Positions 658 to 45,522 of a stretch of 45,777 nt of DNA are shown piece after piece (position 1 is the stretch's first letter; each line of letters begins with the position of its first letter). The notes beneath the pieces are model-generated. The model was given only the letters and a program-made list of their open reading frames with translations, was not told the DNA's origin and searched no databases. The stretch is from Candidatus Doudnabacteria bacterium (GTDB lineage: Bacteria; Patescibacteriota; Doudnabacteria; UBA920; O2-02-FULL-48-8), in assembly GCA_016199215.1 (NCBI GenBank), contig JACQHB010000005.1:1-45777 (forward strand), given 5' to 3'. The translations under genes and the position numbers were made by a program.

Positions 658-1319
658 CACTATCGATTATTATCCCGGTTTACAACGAAAGCGAAACTCT
701 GGAGGCAGTCCTTGAAAAGGTCAACAGGGCCGATACCAACGGATTTGAAAAAGAAATTATTATTATTGATGACGGATCCAACCCGTCGCTTCGTAAATCT
801 GATTTTAACGGCTATCTGTTTATCAAACACAGCAAAAATCTTGGCAAGGGCGCTGCCATAAAAACGGGCCTTGGCCTCGCCACCGGAGACATAGTATTGA
901 TACAGGACGCAGACCTTGAGTATGAACCGCAAGACTTCCCTTCCCTGCTTTCCCCTTTTTCAGATCCGAATGTTCAAGCGGTCTATGGCTACAGAACAAA
1001 GCCAGGCTACAAATCTTTTTACTTTGGCAATAAATTATTTACTGGATTCGTAAATATGCTTTTTGGCTCAAACTTAAGAGATCCTTACAGCGGATACAAA
1101 GCAATAAAAAAACCGCTGCTTGATTCCCTACAGCTGGTCAGCGACAAATTCGAGATTGAGGCGGAAATTACATCCAAATTGCTTAAGAAAAAAGTAAAAA
1201 TCCTGCAGGTTCCGATTGCTTACTATCCGCGGACCTTTGAGAAAGGCAAAAAAATTAAGTTTTTCAAAGACGGAGGCAAAGGCCTCTGGACGTTTCTAAA
1301 ATACCGGTTTCTTAAATAG
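654..1319 (+). CDS. Glycosyltransferase family 2 (DPM1/polyprenol-phosphate glycosyltransferase-like)
   Basis: LSIIIPVYNE, IIIDDGS, NLGKGAA, IQDADLEY, DPYSGYK, FEIEAEIT motifs. Confidence 0.9.
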   Translation: MTLSIIIPVYNESETLEAVLEKVNRADTNGFEKEIIIIDDGSNPSLRKSDFNGYLFIKHSKNLGKGAAIKTGLGLATGDIVLIQDADLEYEPQDFPSLLSPFSDPNVQAVYGYRTKPGYKSFYFGNKLFTGFVNMLFGSNLRDPYSGYKAIKKPLLDSLQLVSDKFEIEAEITSKLLKKKVKILQVPIAYYPRTFEKGKKIKFFKDGGKGLWTFLKYRFLK

Positions 1320-1332
1320 TTTGGATATACTC

Positions 1333-1370
1333 TGTACAACTTACTGCTCGATCGAGCAATGTTTTGTACA
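1333..1370. repeat. Palindrome family A, copy 1 (TGTACAA-N5-TGCTCGATCGAGCA-N5-TTGTACA, 38 bp)
   Basis: tgtacaa cttac tgctcgatcgagca atgtt ttgtaca. Confidence 0.95.
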
Positions 1371-1379
1371 AGCCAAAAC

Positions 1380-2075
1380 CTAAATAATTTTTTTCCTAAA
1401 AACCACATTCCATTGCCCAAGTTCTGTCGAACCATCTGGTTTGACTTTTTCGTCTACGGGACTCCCAACCAAGTCAAAACCGTTTTCGTCAGCAAGCTTC
1501 TGGATCTCTTCCAACGAAAAACGATGAACAATGACACTTGCCCCGCTTTCGTCCTTCTCTCTAAGCCAAGTTTCTTTTTCACCAGGCAATTCAACCGCTC
1601 CTTCTTGTGTCAAATTAGTTATAGAATTGACTCTAAAAAAGAAGAGGCCGCCGGGTTTTAAAATTCTAGCGGCTTCGCGGAACGCTTCAGCCCTCGATTC
1701 TTTTCTCCCGTTGTGCAGGGCTTGGATCGCTACGGCAGTATCAAAACTGCCATCAGCGAAAGGCAATTTTCTAAAATCAGCCTGAACTACATCCGCGTTA
1801 GGAAGCTGTTTTTTTATCTGTTCCAAGCCAACTTTTGAAGCATCAATGCCTGTTACTTGATAGCCCAGTTCAGCAAGAGGAACTAAATGCCTGCCGCCGC
1901 CTGTGCCAATATCCAAAATCTTTGGGCCAATCTCTTCTCGAAATTTTTCAACAAACTCCAAAAGCCTGGGCTCCGGAGATTTATCTTCTGACCATCCCTG
2001 TTCATGCCTAAAATCCCAACGCTTAATCACATTAGTTAATTCGTTGTCGGGAATATATTTAGGGTATTCTGACAT
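1380..2075 (-). CDS. Class I SAM-dependent methyltransferase
   Basis: ILDIGTGGG motif I, VTGIDAS, ADFRKLPFADGSFD, ILKPGGLF. Confidence 0.9.
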   Translation of the reverse strand: MSEYPKYIPDNELTNVIKRWDFRHEQGWSEDKSPEPRLLEFVEKFREEIGPKILDIGTGGGRHLVPLAELGYQVTGIDASKVGLEQIKKQLPNADVVQADFRKLPFADGSFDTAVAIQALHNGRKESRAEAFREAARILKPGGLFFFRVNSITNLTQEGAVELPGEKETWLREKDESGASVIVHRFSLEEIQKLADENGFDLVGSPVDEKVKPDGSTELGQWNVVFRKKII

Positions 2076-2093
2076 AATGATTTCCGGCTAACA

Positions 2094-2131
2094 TGTCCAA
2101 CTTCCTGCTCGATCGAGCGATGTTTTGTACA
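2094..2131. repeat. Palindrome family A, copy 2
   Basis: tgtccaa cttcc tgctcgatcgagcg atgtt ttgtaca. Confidence 0.92.
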
Positions 2132-20168: not shown

Positions 20169-20226
20169 CAAAAGGTCAAAAAACTACTTGTCCAATGTTG
20201 TGCTCGATCGAGCAATGTTTTGTACA
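20169..20226. repeat. 58-bp direct repeat, copy 1 (contains palindrome A copy 3 at 20189-20226)
   Basis: Identical to 20829-20886, offset 660 bp. Confidence 0.97.
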
Positions 20227-20227
20227 C

Positions 20228-20797
20228 TTATCCCACCGCTTCTTCGATTAATTTTTTCGTCAAGTCAACTGGGAGACCCGCGACACTTTCAATTGTTCCT
20301 TCCAGGCGATCAATAAACTTTGAAAAAGGTTCCTGTTCGGCGGCGAAACTTCCGGCATGCTCGAACACTTTACCGCTCTCCACAAATTGTTCGATGTCCT
20401 CTTTTCGAAAAGGCTTAAAATAAATTGTTACCACATCAACTCCTTCGACAATTTTGCCTGTTTTAATGTTTGTCACGACAACCGCAGCCACTGTCTGTAC
20501 TGGCTTATCTCTAAAACCCAATGCGATCCGGTAGGCTTCTTCTTTCGATTCCGGTTTTTCCAGAATTTCACCATCAAAAACTACCACCAAATCAGAGGTT
20601 ATTAGAATCGAATCAGAATCAATACTTGGAGTCAATGCCACTGCTTTCGCTCTGGCTAAAGTAAGAGTTAGTTCCTTAGGATCCCTACATCTTATTGATT
20701 TCTCATCAATATCAGCAGTAATCACTTCAAAGTCAAAGCCCATATCTTTTAAAATTTTCCTCCGCCTTGCCGAACCTGATCCTAACACAATTTTCAT
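20228..20797 (-). CDS. maf: Maf family nucleotide pyrophosphatase
   Basis: IVLGSGSARRRKIL, IDEKSI, ARAKA, TSDLVV, KPES.EEA, AG. Confidence 0.93.
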   Translation of the reverse strand: MKIVLGSGSARRRKILKDMGFDFEVITADIDEKSIRCRDPKELTLTLARAKAVALTPSIDSDSILITSDLVVVFDGEILEKPESKEEAYRIALGFRDKPVQTVAAVVVTNIKTGKIVEGVDVVTIYFKPFRKEDIEQFVESGKVFEHAGSFAAEQEPFSKFIDRLEGTIESVAGLPVDLTKKLIEEAVG

Positions 20798-20828
20798 AAT
20801 CGTTGAAGTTATTCTCTCACCAAATAAT

Positions 20829-20886
20829 CAAAAGGTCAAAAAACTACTTGTCCAATGTTGTGCTCGATCGAGCAATGTTTTGTACA
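20829..20886. repeat. 58-bp direct repeat, copy 2 (contains palindrome A copy 4 at 20849-20886)
   Basis: Identical to 20169-20226; encodes the last residues and stop of the PaaX-like ORF. Confidence 0.97.
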
Positions 20887-21377
20887 TGCTCGAGTCGACC
20901 GGAAAAAACCTTGACGTCATTCATCAATTTGAGTTCTTTTATCAAATCAGCGACATCATTTGAAATCTTAAAAGGGCTTATAAAAGCGCTTTTTTGAAAT
21001 TGAGTGTAACCATTTCTAACCAAAAAGCGGCGGAAAGAATCTCTTGCCTTATGTTTTTCTTCAGGAACGTCAAATAATACGACGGTAGACAACCCGTCTT
21101 TCCGTAAAACTTTCTTAACAGTACTCTTTCTTATTGTTTTAGCCTTTTCTGTTAATATATATGTACTTGGATATTTTTTTCGATCTTTTTTCACTAATCC
21201 TAACTTTACAAATTTTCTCAAACGGTAATAATACGTTTGCCGGGGAATGGTAAGAACTCTTAACTTGCCGTAAGGCGTAAAAGCAATTTCCTCTGCAAGC
21301 AGCCCCAGCTCCTTGATCATATCCCAAAGTTCCTCGGTCGCAATGCGAAGTATTTGCTTTGATGATAAATTCCTCAT
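20844..21377 (-). CDS. PaaX-like protein: winged HTH plus Cas2-like (PaaX central) domain
   Basis: wHTH (YYYRLRKFVKLGLV...YILTEK) then VVLFDVPEEKHKARDSFRRFL...GYTQFQKSAFISP. Confidence 0.82.
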   Translation of the reverse strand: MRNLSSKQILRIATEELWDMIKELGLLAEEIAFTPYGKLRVLTIPRQTYYYRLRKFVKLGLVKKDRKKYPSTYILTEKAKTIRKSTVKKVLRKDGLSTVVLFDVPEEKHKARDSFRRFLVRNGYTQFQKSAFISPFKISNDVADLIKELKLMNDVKVFSGRLEHVQNIARSSTTLDK

Positions 21378-21385
21378 AATTCAAT

Positions 21386-21423
21386 TGTACAACTTTGTGC
21401 TCGATCGAGCAATGTTTTGTACA
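21386..21423 (-). promoter_or_regulatory. Palindrome family A, copy 5, forming the promoter of the PaaX-like gene
   Basis: Minus strand TTGCTC-N17-TACAAT, 6 nt before the ATG. Confidence 0.8.
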
Positions 21424-22446: not shown

Positions 22447-22628
22447 GTTATCTTTCCCTCTCGGGCTGGATTTGGCACCTTCTTATGTAGTCAGTCGATT
22501 TATCGACTCGGTTGAGCTGATAAATCAGCCCCGAACCAGACACTCCGTGTCGGTACGGGGCAGGCTGACTACGAAAGGGTTGCCGGACGGATCATAAGGC
22601 CAGAACCTTTCCCGTCACTCTTGATATT
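22447..22628 (-). ncRNA. SAM-I (S-box) riboswitch with an 86-nt insertion in P3
   Basis: Minus: ATATCAAGAG..GGGAAAGG..CTGGCC..ATGA...CGGCAACC [insert] GGTGCCAAATCC.GC....GAAAGATAA; upstream of metK; TTGCTT-N17-TATAAT promoter at 22643-22671. Confidence 0.9.
22487..22572. mobile_element. Palindromic element (family C) with GTAGTCAG/CTGACTAC termini inside the riboswitch
   Basis: Internal palindromes agtcgatttatcgact and gctgataaatcagc plus ccccg...cgggg hairpin. Confidence 0.75.
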
Positions 22629-34722: not shown

Positions 34723-34825
34723 CCCGTTTAGAAATTTTTGATTAATTATTTACAAAGATAATTTATAATTTCCCGCTAGATTATAATACTAGAATTATTT
34801 GCCGCATTCAAATTTCTAACGGGAT
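34721..34825. repeat. Inverted pair of CCCGTTAGAAA motif (family B), pair 1
   Basis: atcccgtttagaaattt ... aaatttctaacgggat; left arm supplies the hpf ATG. Confidence 0.8.
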
Positions 34826-34834
34826 TCATATATT

Positions 34835-38902: not shown

Positions 38903-39021
38903 CCCGTTAGAAATTCCAGTTTTAATATTAGCAATCTTGTAATTTTCCATAATGCCCACTAGGATTAGAAAACACCATTCTATTTTTTAATTTTAGGATT
39001 TTTATCTATTTCTAACGGGAT
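38901..39021. repeat. Inverted pair of family B motif, pair 2
   Basis: atcccgttagaaat ... atttctaacgggat; atccat on both outer sides. Confidence 0.85.
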
Positions 39022-39999
39022 CCATTGTTTTTGTTTCTGATGACTCTTAATCAAGTTTACTATTTTAGGCACGGCTTCCAGGGCGGCTCTTCGCCCTTCC
39101 TTATAAATCACTTGAAGGTTATCCGAATTCAGCTCTGTCTTTCTCCACTGTCTCACTTTAGGGGTAATCATCAAATCACAAGCCATATCGGCATCAGTCC
39201 ATCTGTCGGATATTTCCATCGAATGATCCAACGCCTTAGTCAAAATTTTAATGATTCCGGGATTTTTGCGCTTAGCTTCCGGGTTCTTGACGAGGTCCAG
39301 AATTTTTTTCATAAGCGTCATCTGCTTGCGCGTAAAATAAGAAAGTCCGGTATACTTTGTGACCATCCTGTATAATCTCCAATAAGGCAGTTTTTTTTCA
39401 TAAATAAAACGAGCGCCTGAAACATTGACTCCTATAACTATATCAGCACCCATTTCCCGAACCGGCAAGGTAGGAACTATGTTTACCAATCCGCCATCTA
39501 CCAAAAGCTTGCCCCCTAAAACTATGGGCGGGAACAGTCCTGGAACTGCCGTGGATGCTTTGACCGCCGTGATTATCTCTCCCCAACTCACAGTGACCAA
39601 CTCGCCCGTATTTACGTCAGCCGCCGTGAAACCAAGTTTAGGGTAACTGTTTTGGAAAGTTAAGCCATCTGATAATTTTTTAAGCACTTCTTCACCCTTG
39701 CCAAATTCAAAAATTCCGCCTTTTTTGCTCGTCAGCGACCACATGCCAACCAGCTTCTGCAGGCTGATGCTGTGCATGAATTTTTTAAAATAATCCAATT
39801 TATTATTGGCGTAAGCCACTGCCACAAGCGCGCCGGAAGAGCACCCAATCATGTAATCAATCGGGATTTTGTGCTCCTTAAAAACTTCCAGCACTCCAAC
39901 TTCGGTAATTGCCCTGCTTGATCCTCCAGACAAGGCTATACCGATCGTGGGCCTATTTAAGTTGTCCTGCGACAACTGATGCAATTTTGTCTTCTGCAT
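38980..39999 (-). CDS. Patatin-like phospholipase
   Basis: ALSGGSSRA, GCSSG (GxSxG), AVPGLFPP, LVDGG. Confidence 0.9.
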   Translation of the reverse strand: MQKTKLHQLSQDNLNRPTIGIALSGGSSRAITEVGVLEVFKEHKIPIDYMIGCSSGALVAVAYANNKLDYFKKFMHSISLQKLVGMWSLTSKKGGIFEFGKGEEVLKKLSDGLTFQNSYPKLGFTAADVNTGELVTVSWGEIITAVKASTAVPGLFPPIVLGGKLLVDGGLVNIVPTLPVREMGADIVIGVNVSGARFIYEKKLPYWRLYRMVTKYTGLSYFTRKQMTLMKKILDLVKNPEAKRKNPGIIKILTKALDHSMEISDRWTDADMACDLMITPKVRQWRKTELNSDNLQVIYKEGRRAALEAVPKIVNLIKSHQKQKQWIPLEIDKNPKIKK

Positions 40000-41059: not shown

Positions 41060-41081
41060 GTAGTCAGCCGATTTATCGGCT
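41060..41081. repeat. Palindrome family C copy abutting the murG start codon
   Basis: gtagtcagccgatttatcggct. Confidence 0.8.
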
Positions 41082-41098: not shown

Positions 41099-42208
41099 TC
41101 AGCCAACTACGGAACCGTATAAATTAATAGTTTCTTGTGCTGCCATTTTCCAATTAAAATGCTTTGACCGCGATAACCCCAAGTTCGCCAGCTCTTCCAA
41201 CCGCTTTTCGTTTTTGAGCAAATTTTCTAGCACATCAGTCATATTTTCCAAATTATTCGGATCAAAATATTCCGCGCCCTGGCCCAAAATTTCTCGAAGC
41301 GTTGGTATATCGGAAGAAACAATAGGGACGCCGCACGATGCGGCTTCAAGAGCCGTAAGCCCGAATCCTTCTGACAAAGATGGCAGGACAAACAAGGTTG
41401 CTGCATTATACAAAGCCTGCATATCAGAATCAGAAACCCTGCCAGGGCAAACAATATGATCTGAATGGTTTACGCTTAAAATCTGTTGCTTAATTTCCGG
41501 ATAAAAAGGATCAGGCTCGCCTGCCAATACTAATTGCAGGTCCAGTCCCTTATCAATCATCCGGCTGAAGGCGCGGGCAAGCATTGGGAGATTTTTATAC
41601 CGCCTCCAAACTCCAACATAAAGTATAAAGGGTTTGGATATCCCGAATCTATTGGCTATTTGATCGAAGGCTTCCTGCTTATCCATCATCCTAAACGAAT
41701 CATTTGCCCCTTCGTAAATTGTCACTGTTTTGTCGTCTACATTTCCAAATACTTCCTGGATTTCGTTTTTCGTCCCATTGGAAACGGCGATAATTTTTTT
41801 TGCGGATTTAATCGCGTTCGACAAGACAAAATTATACGCTAGGCGGTGAAAAAAATGGGATTTTTTTCGGCCGGGAAATTTGGAGTGCGTCAAATCATGG
41901 ATTGTGACTATAAAAGGCTTGCGATAAAAAATAGGAACGTTGAAATGCGGAAAATGAACTAAATCCAAATTCTCTTTGTTCAAAACCCGCGGCAGTCTCA
42001 ACTGCTCCGCAACCGAGTAATGAGGAATGCCTGTAATAACAATTTTGCGGTTAAATTTTTTGTAGTCAGCCGATTCATCGGCTCTTCTAAAAAACAAAAC
42101 GTATTCGTTTTTCTTATCCATTTCCAAAATCTTCTGAGACAACTCAAAAATATACCTCGAAATCCCCGACCCCCCTCCCAGCATCCTTAAATCTAATCCA
42201 ATTCTCAT
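41099..42208 (-). CDS. GT4 (GT-B) glycosyltransferase
   Basis: RIGLDLR, VTIHDL, YVGV..RYKN, PSLSEGFGLTALEA..CG.P..SSD. Confidence 0.92.
   Translation of the reverse strand: MRIGLDLRMLGGGSGISRYIFELSQKILEMDKKNEYVLFFRRADESADYKKFNRKIVITGIPHYSVAEQLRLPRVLNKENLDLVHFPHFNVPIFYRKPFIVTIHDLTHSKFPGRKKSHFFHRLAYNFVLSNAIKSAKKIIAVSNGTKNEIQEVFGNVDDKTVTIYEGANDSFRMMDKQEAFDQIANRFGISKPFILYVGVWRRYKNLPMLARAFSRMIDKGLDLQLVLAGEPDPFYPEIKQQILSVNHSDHIVCPGRVSDSDMQALYNAATLFVLPSLSEGFGLTALEAASCGVPIVSSDIPTLREILGQGAEYFDPNNLENMTDVLENLLKNEKRLEELANLGLSRSKHFNWKMAAQETINLYGSVVG
42062..42083. repeat. Palindrome family C copy in frame inside the GT4 gene
   Basis: gtagtcagccgattcatcggct, encoding RADESADY. Confidence 0.75.
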
Positions 42209-42254
42209 AGTTTCTGAATCTTGCTTAACACTTCAAAATTCTACCGAATACTTT

Positions 42255-42289
42255 TAATACTGCAATACGAGAAAGTATTGCAGTATTAA
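42255..42289. repeat. Palindrome family D, copy 1 (TAATACTGCAATAC-gagaaa-GTATTGCAGTATTA)
   Basis: 14-bp perfect stem; 34 bp identical to 42804-42837. Confidence 0.95.
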
Positions 42290-42777
42290 ATCGGCAGTTG
42301 TTTTTTTCCTGTAGATTTCCTAATCGCTCCCCTAATCACATTCCTAGCACCCCTCAAGCCAGCTTTGGCCAAATTCTCTACCAAAACTTGTTCTCTAAAT
42401 TTTGGAAACCTTTTCCTTTCCAAAAAATCTTGATACTTATCTCTCCTCGCCTGATAGGCTTTGCCCAATGCTTGTAACTTTGCATGAGCAACTCTCAACC
42501 CCTTACCATCTCGAGCTAGAGTATTACTAACAGTTGCAATAGTGTGCTCTGTCACTTTTAGATCACTAGAAATCTCTTCGTAAGTTTGCCCTTCCAGTAA
42601 CCTCCTCGCTATCTCTAGTCTCTTTGCAAACATTTTATACTCAGTATGAGTAAAGAGATCCCGAAACAACAATCGAATATCTTCTTTTTTATCGATTAAT
42701 GTAAAAACAGACCAAAGGTTATTAATATAATAGCCAAAATCCTTAGGATCTAAATTCAGTCTAGACAGTTTCGTCAT
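42286..42777 (-). CDS. TrpR-like YerC/YecD family DNA-binding protein
   Basis: LFRDLFTHTEYKMFAKRLEIARRLLEGQTYEEI...L.V...TIATVSN.L. Confidence 0.88.
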   Translation of the reverse strand: MTKLSRLNLDPKDFGYYINNLWSVFTLIDKKEDIRLLFRDLFTHTEYKMFAKRLEIARRLLEGQTYEEISSDLKVTEHTIATVSNTLARDGKGLRVAHAKLQALGKAYQARRDKYQDFLERKRFPKFREQVLVENLAKAGLRGARNVIRGAIRKSTGKKQLPI

Positions 42778-42803
42778 CTAATAAATTATAGCTTGCGCTT
42801 TCG

Positions 42804-42837
42804 AATACTGCAATACGAGAAAGTATTGCAGTATTAA
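42804..42837. repeat. Palindrome family D, copy 2; supplies the -35 of the YerC-like promoter
   Basis: Minus TTGCAG-N17-TATAAT, 7 nt before the ATG. Confidence 0.93.
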
Positions 42838-43937
42838 GACGCTAAATGTTTAAAGTCCTGATACTTCCCTTCTACAAATTCCTTAATCTTCTTCTGGAAA
42901 ATCTTCTTATCGAAATTTTGGGCGTGCTGGCGGATGATATTTGGATCAAACTTCGCAGTATCAAAGCTTTGAATCGCCTGCTTTATCGATTCCGAAGATT
43001 GGGTTTCAAAAAACTTCCCAGTTACTCCTTCCTTGACAATCTCAACAGCACCTCCGGCTCTGTAAGTGATCACCGGCGTGCCGCAGGCTTGCGCTTCCAA
43101 CATCATAATCCCGGCGTCCTCTTCGGCTGGAAAAATGAATGCCTGGGCTTCCGAATATCTTTTCCGAAGCTCCTCGTCCGAAACACGACCCAAAAACTCA
43201 ATATTGCTCCTGGCCATTGCCCGAAGTTTTTCGGAGTTTGTACCAGACCCGGCAACTTTCAAGGGCAAACCAAGTTCGTTAAATGCGGAAACAACTAATT
43301 CAATTTTTTTATAAGGCTCAAGCCTTGAGGCCACAAAAAAATAATTCTCTTTCTTCCCTTCCGGATGGAAAAGTTCAGTATCTACAGGAGGCCAGATCAC
43401 CTCTGCGTCGCGCTTGTAATATTTCTTGATACGATTTTTCACGTTTTCTGAATTGCAAACAAAAAAATCAGGGCCTTGCGCGGCAAAATAATCCCATTTC
43501 TTCAAAACCTTAAGCACGGGACGCGCCAACCACTTGGCCCAAAAGGGATAAGGCTGGCTTGCTAAATAATCTTCTTGCTCTGTCCACAAAAATCTGGTTG
43601 GAGTATGGCAATAGCAAATATGAAGCTTACCCTTGGCTTTCACGCCTTTCGCAAACGAAGAGGCGTCTGAAAGAATTAAATCGTAATCTGAAAAATCAAA
43701 AGTCCTGACAGCGGAAGGCATAAGCGCCAAAAACCAGCGGTGATGATTTTTTGCCAAAGGAAGCCTCTCCAAAAAACTTATCCGCTTGTCATAAGCCTCA
43801 AAAATCCCTTTGGTTTTGTCTTTGTCATATATCAAAACATGGATCGTGGCATGCGGCCAGATCTCGAGAAAATTTTGGAGAACCCTTTCGGCTCCTCCAA
43901 GCTGCGTTAAAAATTCGTGAACTAAAGCTATTTTCAT
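42834..43937 (-). CDS. GT4 glycosyltransferase
   Basis: KIALVHEFL...GGAERVL, YCHTPTR, SRLEPYK, EEDAGI..LEAQACG.PVI. Confidence 0.92.
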   Translation of the reverse strand: MKIALVHEFLTQLGGAERVLQNFLEIWPHATIHVLIYDKDKTKGIFEAYDKRISFLERLPLAKNHHRWFLALMPSAVRTFDFSDYDLILSDASSFAKGVKAKGKLHICYCHTPTRFLWTEQEDYLASQPYPFWAKWLARPVLKVLKKWDYFAAQGPDFFVCNSENVKNRIKKYYKRDAEVIWPPVDTELFHPEGKKENYFFVASRLEPYKKIELVVSAFNELGLPLKVAGSGTNSEKLRAMARSNIEFLGRVSDEELRKRYSEAQAFIFPAEEDAGIMMLEAQACGTPVITYRAGGAVEIVKEGVTGKFFETQSSESIKQAIQSFDTAKFDPNIIRQHAQNFDKKIFQKKIKEFVEGKYQDFKHLAS

Positions 43938-45389: not shown

Positions 45390-45502
45390 CCCGTTAAAAA
45401 TTGATTACGCTTAAGAATATGCGTTATTAGCAAAAATCCCGTTTAAGACCATGCATCGCAGGCTTACGCTTTTTATTGAGAATTAGCTATTTCTAACGGG
45501 AT
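45388..45502. repeat. Inverted pair of family B motif, pair 3
   Basis: atcccgttaaaaat ... atttctaacgggat; left arm supplies the ATG. Confidence 0.8.
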
Positions 45503-45522
45503 TCATCCCTATCATTATAATC

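Follow-up and report, generated by a model that had tools for sequence, protein, structure and literature searches.

Why should a small gene for a TrpR-like protein lie between two identical palindromes, in the middle of a pair of glycosyltransferase genes? The question is raised by a 45,777-nt stretch of DNA (the window) from Candidatus Doudnabacteria, an ultra-small groundwater bacterium whose assembly comprises 521 kb in 16 contigs and is 79% complete. Here, a gene for a TrpR/YerC-like regulator stands between two GT4 glycosyltransferase genes, GT4a upstream and GT4b downstream, and is bracketed by two copies of a 34-bp palindrome. The answer favoured here, with a probability of about 0.74, is a TrpR-like repressor that regulates itself and has its own four-box operators on either side; gene and operators together would form a portable cassette, by which an ancestral overlap of GT4a and GT4b was split.

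The window contains exactly two copies of the 34-mer AATACTGCAATACGAGAAAGTATTGCAGTATTAA (42256-42289 and 42804-42837), with no copy expected from 100 shuffles. Both copies have arms of 13-15 bp around an asymmetric 6-bp centre, GAGAAA. An earlier sequence-only reading of the window, made from its letters, had described identical 34-bp palindromes around the YerC-like gene and had noticed that the palindrome supplies the TAA stop codon of this gene and of the upstream GT4 gene. Both statements hold, the two TAA codons occupying equal positions in their respective copies. A Bac_transf priming transferase is encoded upstream of the GT4 pair and a MurG-like gene lies downstream. The features of the locus, in window coordinates, are as follows.

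42804..42837, no strand: upstream palindrome, putative operator O1, with the four-box core TAC-N5-TAC-N6-GTA-N5-GTA at 42806-42833
42834-42836, minus strand: TAA stop codon of GT4a, inside O1
42813-42808, minus strand: -35-like TTGCAG, inside O1
42785..42790, minus strand: -10 box TATAAT, 17 nt past TTGCAG and 7 nt ahead of the regulator ATG
42286..42777, minus strand: TrpR/YerC-like regulator gene, 163 aa, bracketed by O1 and O2
42256..42289, no strand: downstream palindrome, putative operator O2, identical to O1, holding the regulator TAA (42286-42288)
42238..42265, minus strand: candidate GT4b promoter (TTGCAG 42265-42260, 16 nt, TAGAAT 42243-42238)
42834..43937, minus strand: GT4a glycosyltransferase, upstream gene
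41099..42208, minus strand: GT4b glycosyltransferase, downstream gene

The bracket is a property of the family. In a survey of 45 homologous loci from Doudnabacteria and other Patescibacteria, palindromes lie on both sides of the YerC-like gene in 31 and on one side in about 12; flanking palindromes, for which the sequence-only reading had proposed to look, are nearly always present. The centre of the downstream palindrome is modally located 17 nt past the first base of the stop codon, which is also the geometry of O2, and that of the upstream palindrome 13-68 nt ahead of the ATG. Neighbouring genes are mostly co-oriented with the regulator, upstream in 43 of 45 loci and downstream in 32 of 41.

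Sequence and predicted fold place the regulator in the TrpR family. Its match to Pfam Trp_repressor (PF01371) scores 40.4 bits against a cut-off of 27 (E 3e-10, residues 28-90). Its AlphaFold (AF2) model, with a predicted local distance difference test score (pLDDT) of 82, has the TrpR fold at residues 11-89, and two long helices at 92-120 and 128-158. The recognition helix is predicted around VTEHTIATVSNTL, with H78 as the specificity position. Top Foldseek matches to the model are 3KOR and 3FRW (template-modelling score to target 0.87, root-mean-square deviation 1.3-1.5), 3G1C and 1TRR/1TRO, and a sequence search of the PDB returns the same three YerC-like entries (3FRW, 3KOR and 3G1C). Neither the Pfam match nor Foldseek on the predicted fold gave evidence of an HUH, nuclease, recombinase or other catalytic domain. 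A profile search collected 838 representative clusters at E<=1e-10, and homologs are annotated only as 'hypothetical', 'HTH domain-containing' or 'uncharacterized protein YerC'.

The bracketed protein most likely has its cognate operators in these palindromes, because palindrome types are paralog-specific, protein residues covary with operator bases, and genes and sites co-occur among genomes. The genome encodes three further paralogs, 54, 46 and 39% identical to the regulator, and each of the four is bracketed by its own palindrome type, all sharing the design TAC-N5-TAC-N6-GTA-N5-GTA. The types are distinguished as follows.

Type A: TACTGCAATAC-GAGAAA
Type B: TACCATCATAC-AGGAGT
Type C: TACTTCCATAC-GGGACA
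Type D: TACTAAATTAC-GATATA
Type E: ACTTGCTTAC-GGGCCC, with no cognate gene in the 79%-complete assembly; it brackets a homolog in G001, a genome of the same genus

Type-E sites (ACTTGCTTACGGGCCCGTAAGCAAGT) stand at C3:21878 and C4:47390 of the genome without a cognate gene in the assembly. The reverse holds in G001, where type-A-like sites are present but no type-A gene was detected. In the favoured explanation, the Doudnabacteria genome carries at least four or five mutually orthogonal paralog/operator pairs.

Covariation was scored as mutual information between the alignment of homologous proteins and the variable operator bases, uncorrected for phylogeny. The highest value, 3.84 bits (the next being 3.0), belongs to residue 78, the H in VTEHTI, with which the recognition helix begins. 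We take this position to correspond to the end of TrpR helix E that faces the DNA. Here, H is paired with TGCA(A/T); R with ATTCA, CTTCA or TTGCA; K, together with P80, with TTGCT; and N with (C/T)ATCA. These pairings turn up again in separate clades of the protein tree, and in the related genome G013 an E77K replacement coincides with a change of TAC to TAG in all four boxes of both sites. Among 61 related genomes, the count of strict four-box sites correlates with the copy number of the gene family (Spearman 0.79, p 4e-14); sites are present in 19 of 21 genomes with the gene versus 5 of 40 without it, and the strict pattern is found 85 times versus 7 for a reversed control pattern.

Solo copies of each type lie elsewhere in the same genome, about 2-6 copies per type being counted (about four in this genome, at most about six in relatives). 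Type A has two extra copies. One, with a single mismatch, lies upstream of adk on contig C3. The other falls on the C11/C15 contig junction, between the stop codon of an alpha/beta-hydrolase gene and the start of a GT2 glycosyltransferase gene. The 3' end of C11 and the 5' start of C15 share 27 bases of the type-A palindrome, and the two contigs are probably joinable, the assembly having broken at the palindrome repeat. Unlike types tend to cluster, E and A being 114 bp apart and C and D 393 bp apart. The E and A pair follows a GC-rich open reading frame of 196 aa, with no obvious relatives, in an insert between secY and adk (C3:20725-22134; L004 240-1640). Contexts of type-A sites in relatives are heterogeneous (the MscL neighbourhood in two genera, the inside of a Sua5/YrdC-like gene, and others). 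No coherent type-A regulon with a clear functional theme emerged in relatives, and in the genome itself two targets are glycosyltransferase genes. Other solo copies are intragenic: lepA holds one of type B, tatD and alaS hold type D, and a CYTH-domain gene has both C and D.

The lepA palindrome (C16:16892-16917) replaces a variable loop right after the conserved RVGDT and leaves its length unchanged. The same loop bears other palindrome types in G001, G007 and G021 (L039, L051 and L056) and none in 26 relatives (4/30 carry one). In tatD, 6 of 30 genomes (this one and the relatives L154, L156, L160, L161 and L163) have palindromes in one loop (C12:1865-1890); their types vary, they stand in two registers, and ACTTCGATAC...GTATCA(G/T)AGT is common to G001, G008 and G009. 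Every genome with palindromes in the lepA or tatD loops also has the regulator gene family. The intragenic copies fit either of two readings: selection for additional binding sites, placed at the few points of coding sequence where the encoded peptide is tolerated, or templated copying.

Templated copying is central to the first rival explanation. In REPIN-RAYT systems (REPtrons), a gene for a Y1 HUH transposase-like RAYT protein is flanked by its own palindromes, each paralog having its palindrome family, and tens to hundreds of extragenic copies are dispersed in the genome. The rival supposes a selfish system of this kind on a non-catalytic helix-turn-helix protein, with palindromes copied by short-patch gene conversion or template switching; the protein would bind, maintain or homogenise the palindromes and regulation would be secondary. 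Flanking by cognate palindromes, one type per paralog and dispersed solo copies are indeed common to both. However, the protein consists of a TrpR fold and two added helices and is no Y1 HUH transposase, and no HUH, nuclease or recombinase domain was recognized in it; copies are few (about 2-6 per type) and several are intragenic. In-frame copies inside lepA, tatD, alaS and the CYTH gene, with differing types in the same loops of carriers that all have the gene family, speak for copying, as do centres and flanks that match the module copies nearly base for base, but the conserved tatD sites of G001, G008 and G009 could equally be selected binding sites. Likewise, the patchy distribution (0-8 genes per genome within one family), the AT-richness of three of the four paralogs and the clustering of unlike types have to be set against the age of the paralogs (39-54% identity), the synteny of the window's module across three genera and a promoter geometry that fits classical autorepression. 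On balance, this rival is improbable. A wider proposal is given a small but real chance: Patescibacteria would carry a self-perpetuating system of palindromes, comparable to REPIN-RAYT but based on a non-catalytic protein of TrpR fold, in which each paralog would recognize a four-box palindrome of its own and templated short-patch conversion would write the palindromes into gene junctions and tolerant coding loops. If true, the same lepA and tatD loops would have been struck repeatedly by different types in different genera, and the cassette would spread between gene junctions, rewiring operons on landing.

Repression of the regulator's own gene, as in the favoured explanation, is likely because the upstream copy overlaps the -35 box of a conserved, apparently leaderless promoter. 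In the genome itself (G000) and in two relatives (G009 and G013), the right arm of the palindrome gives TTGCAG or TTGCAC, followed after 17 nt by TATAAT or TAATAT and 6-8 nt further on by the ATG. More widely, a TAnnnT box lies 4-10 nt ahead of the start in 21 of 44 modules versus 21% of background genes (p 3e-4), and a Shine-Dalgarno-like motif is found in none of the 44 modules versus 15% of background genes. In a second geometry class, the palindrome is placed between a TTGACx -35 box and the -10 box. Either arrangement is classical for autorepression and points to leaderless mRNAs.

The sequence-only reading had drawn TTGCAG -35 boxes for two promoters, and only the first has fared well: the leaderless promoter of the regulator is conserved in G009 and G013, but the candidate GT4b promoter (N16-TAGAAT, with 29 nt from TAGAAT to the GT4b ATG) is not conserved in orthologs. 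Past the downstream palindrome, -10-like boxes occur at background frequency (7/27), and the distance to the next gene start ranges from 1 to 715 nt. A general function of this palindrome as operator or promoter of the next gene was rejected on these grounds. Its conserved partner, as judged from position, is the regulator's own stop codon and not the start of the next gene. Cooperative looping with the upstream site, a roadblock to read-through and an RNA hairpin are possible functions of the downstream copy.

The last of these can be extended to a second rival, in which the palindromes are mainly RNA hairpins (stabilizers of 3' ends or non-canonical terminators) and their pairing with TrpR-like genes is incidental or due to co-duplication. 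Both copies begin at a stop codon, with the modal stop-to-centre distance of 17 nt, and fold into very stable structures (-29.6 kcal/mol for the downstream region, with an extended hairpin, and -22.4 kcal/mol; z -8.9 and -4.8). Past the downstream copy stands AAUUUUG, yet this is no canonical U-tract; neither palindrome has one, a consensus terminator scan of the locus listed no terminator, and an Rfam search of the locus and of the solo-site region on C3 gave no match. A hairpin also leaves the main observations aside: boxes and type-specific bases covary with a protein residue that would read DNA, sites are absent from genomes without the gene (5/40 exceptions), and the upstream site lies inside the core promoter in many homologs. 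Furthermore, the orientation of the centre flips (ACGACT versus AGTCGT in L017/L086), which matters for an RNA loop and not for a symmetric DNA site. This rival is very improbable.

Comparison of gene junctions indicates that the operator-gene-operator cassette has been gained at different junctions in related genomes. The cluster Bac_transf-GT4a-GT4b-MurG-patatin-... is syntenic in seven genomes. The regulator gene lies between GT4a and GT4b in three of them (G000, G009 and G013), and between Bac_transf and GT4a in the four others (G001, G002, G008 and G024), where GT4a and GT4b overlap (..EEKYAHRT* / ATGCGC..) with no palindrome between them. The sequence-only reading had taken the gene to split a GT4-GT4 pair and had pointed to an empty allele as the thing to seek; such an allele exists in these four relatives, and the gene is not fixed at this locus. 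GT4a in relatives without the module ends in ..KYAHR(A/T), overlapping the GT4b start; in the window, the residues after ..EGKY (QDFKHLAS) and the stop codon arose with the insertion. The three filled alleles have a homologous new GT4a tail after KY and form a derived clade in the protein tree, in which the position between Bac_transf and GT4a is basal. Thus, the placement between GT4a and GT4b points to one relocation or insertion event. Exactly one module is present per glycan cluster in every genome examined, which argues that the regulator is functionally tied to this cluster.

The other paralogs behave similarly. The type C module lies between murJ and lepA, which abut (0-10 nt) in most of 30 relatives, including G001, and the type D module between metS and tatD, which are 2-20 nt apart in many relatives; a module at metS-tatD is otherwise found only in G007. 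The type B module, upstream of eno, is unique to this genome among 22. Since empty sites carry neither palindrome, the whole operator-gene-operator unit appears to have been gained together. At the metS-tatD junction (L154, L162, L174 and L180), other genomes have other single-gene inserts: a DUF559-like gene with flanking GC hairpins in G001, a PD-(D/E)xK-like gene in G002, and methyltransferase-like genes elsewhere. Single-gene gain at junctions is therefore general in these genomes and not special to the regulator family.

The proposal that the module is mobile stands in an evolutionary sense, as gain or relocation of a cassette, and fails in the mechanistic one. No transposase or recombinase was found at the modules, the paralogs (39-54% identical) are not recent copies, and orthologs of the window's module stand in syntenic positions in two other genera. 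A target-site duplication was sought and rejected at the GT4a-GT4b junction, where the similarity of AAGTAT and AAAAAT is short and unconvincing, and none was found at murJ-lepA. An insertion sequence or a miniature inverted-repeat transposable element does not fit, the flanks being direct repeats of a palindrome with no convincing target-site duplication at these two junctions. The gene had also been described as AT-rich with atypical codons: its GC content is moderately low (37.8% versus a coding-sequence mean of 45.3%, z -1.5; z -1.8 at third codon positions), but its codon usage is ordinary (log-likelihood z about 0). In GT4a (42834-43937), residues 181-270 are 90-93% identical to the distant G013 ortholog versus 50-78% elsewhere. 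Sliding-window identity of GT4a and GT4b is mosaic, this same segment being 90-93% identical to G001 and G013 alike, and it gives no clean breakpoint at the module that would mark import from a G013-like donor. These profiles hint at recombination among Doudnabacteria lineages within the glycan cluster.

An integron- or Xer-like cassette, in which the direct palindrome repeats would be recombination sites and a gene circle would be excised or integrated at solo palindromes, is scarcely credible: single genes between direct copies, solo copies elsewhere, presence/absence polymorphism and a contig break exactly at a palindrome (C11 end and C15 start) recall such systems, but empty sites lack any palindrome and their genes overlap or abut, the assembly's only tyrosine recombinase is remote from all modules, the nearest being about 20 kb away, and stands on another contig than the window, the palindromes are perfect without attC-type asymmetry, and a different site per paralog would require a recombinase specificity for each.

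Collectively, the favoured autoregulated cassette can be pictured as follows. The regulator would be a TrpR-fold helix-turn-helix repressor, a divergent relative of YerC/HisR with a C-terminal two-helix hairpin, and the two 34-bp palindromes its cognate operators. Because the four TAC/GTA boxes are spaced by 8 bp, each operator may accommodate two dimers in tandem, as in crystals of Escherichia coli TrpR (1TRR and 1TRO). At the upstream operator, which covers the -35 box of its probably leaderless promoter, the protein would repress its own gene; since this operator also lies on the GT4a stop codon, the bound protein could block read-through from upstream. The downstream operator, on the regulator stop codon, may cooperate with the upstream site by looping via the C-terminal helices or, alternatively, act as a roadblock or valve where transcription would enter GT4b and the remainder of the glycan operon. 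The cassette would have been inserted between tightly packed, co-oriented genes during evolution of the family, and here would have split the overlapping GT4a and GT4b. The analysis shows the anatomy of the sequence, the family and fold, the paralog-specific sites, their covariation and co-occurrence with the gene family, and the empty sites; binding, repression, a ligand and the function of the downstream site are what we infer.

Several observations weigh against this picture. TTGCAG matches the TTGACA consensus at only three of six positions, and a consensus promoter scan listed neither promoter of the locus. Between the downstream palindrome and the next gene start, the distance is not fixed but varies over 1-715 nt. 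About half of the solo sites in the genome are inside coding sequences, in frame, and the same lepA and tatD loops bear different types from genome to genome, a strange pattern for an ordinary regulon. Within any one type, the asymmetric 6-bp centre is conserved, a feature that simple dimer-operator models do not need. Finally, the covariation statistic lacks a correction for phylogeny.

The closest described system is HisR (YerC), followed by E. coli TrpR. HisR (Bacillus subtilis YerC and its orthologs) is a TrpR-family histidine repressor with a 20-bp operator, cacTTTA-N6-TAAAgtg, of lineage-specific consensus; its operators lie upstream of his genes or histidine transporters, and it is autoregulated in about half of the genomes that have it (PMC9413887). 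The regulator shares with HisR the PF01371 domain, the closest solved structures (3FRW, 3KOR and 3G1C) and a palindromic operator with a 6-bp centre. It differs in score, length, operator and regulon. The NCBIfam model for YerC/YecD (TIGR02531) gives it 37.1 bits, below the cut-off of 42.2, as are paralogs B and C, and only paralog D (on C12) passes, with 68.4. HisR is a single domain of about 100 aa, whereas the regulator has 163 aa and two extra helices (92-158); the HisR site has 20 bp, whereas the four-box operator has 28 bp; and the sites of the regulator flank its gene on both sides, one embedding the stop codon, with 4-8 orthogonal paralogs per genome and no his genes in the assembly. 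Homologs of HisA/F and TrpC were not found in the 79%-complete assembly, and a HisR or TrpR function was rejected because these target genes are missing; the sequence-only remark that the window holds no trp genes agrees with the lack of TrpC. E. coli TrpR, which has operators at trp, aroH and trpR, has the same fold and a palindrome in its own promoter for autorepression, as predicted here; its half-site GNACT resembles the (A/T)TACT boxes, and the 8-bp spacing of the boxes fits tandem binding of TrpR dimers. Unlike TrpR, the present system has the bracket architecture, intragenic copies and gain and loss of the cassette, and it lacks trp genes. In the literature searched, no paper connects Patescibacteria with TrpR or YerC, and the site-gene-site pattern of TrpR-like regulators appears to be undescribed.

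The layout extends to another protein family. A gene with a PaaX_M domain (window 20844-21377) is likewise bracketed by its own, unrelated palindrome; the sequence-only reading had taken the YerC-like gene for an independent family that converged on the PaaX-like architecture. Five copies of TGTACAA..TGCTCGATCGAGCA..TTGTACA (window 1313-2131 and 20169-21423) bracket this gene, maf (20228-20797) and a methyltransferase gene (1380-2075), and the two copies around maf are identical over 58 nt. Both modules have the site-gene-site layout in co-directional arrays, but their protein families and palindromes are unrelated. Since the PaaX_M gene is bracketed too, the layout is common to unrelated regulator families in this genome. 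Two other repeat families were seen. A hairpin, GTAGTCAGCCGATTTATCGGCT, has eight copies in the genome, including window 22487-22508, 41060-41081 and 42062-42083 (the last inside GT4b); its stem variants are compensatory (AGCCGAT/ATCGGCT, AGCTGAT/ATCAGCT and AGTCGAT/ATCGACT), and two copies are intragenic. The other, ..ATTTCTAACGGGAT(C/T)CAT, is present three times (window 34806-34829, 39002-39025 and 45483-45506), each time at a gene start or close to one.

In the candidate phyla radiation, whose members are mostly unculturable, gene regulation is almost unknown. In this context, the regulator family offers a testable regulator-operator code, with several orthogonal pairs per genome and a single residue position tracking site specificity, and it might supply synthetic biology with orthogonal parts. 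Why in-frame palindromes recur in essential genes is a question that ordinary regulon models leave unanswered. The compact cassette carries its own promoter and sites, and appears able to split an operon, placing downstream genes behind a putative protein-bound site; this would be a simple route to regulatory rewiring in tiny genomes.

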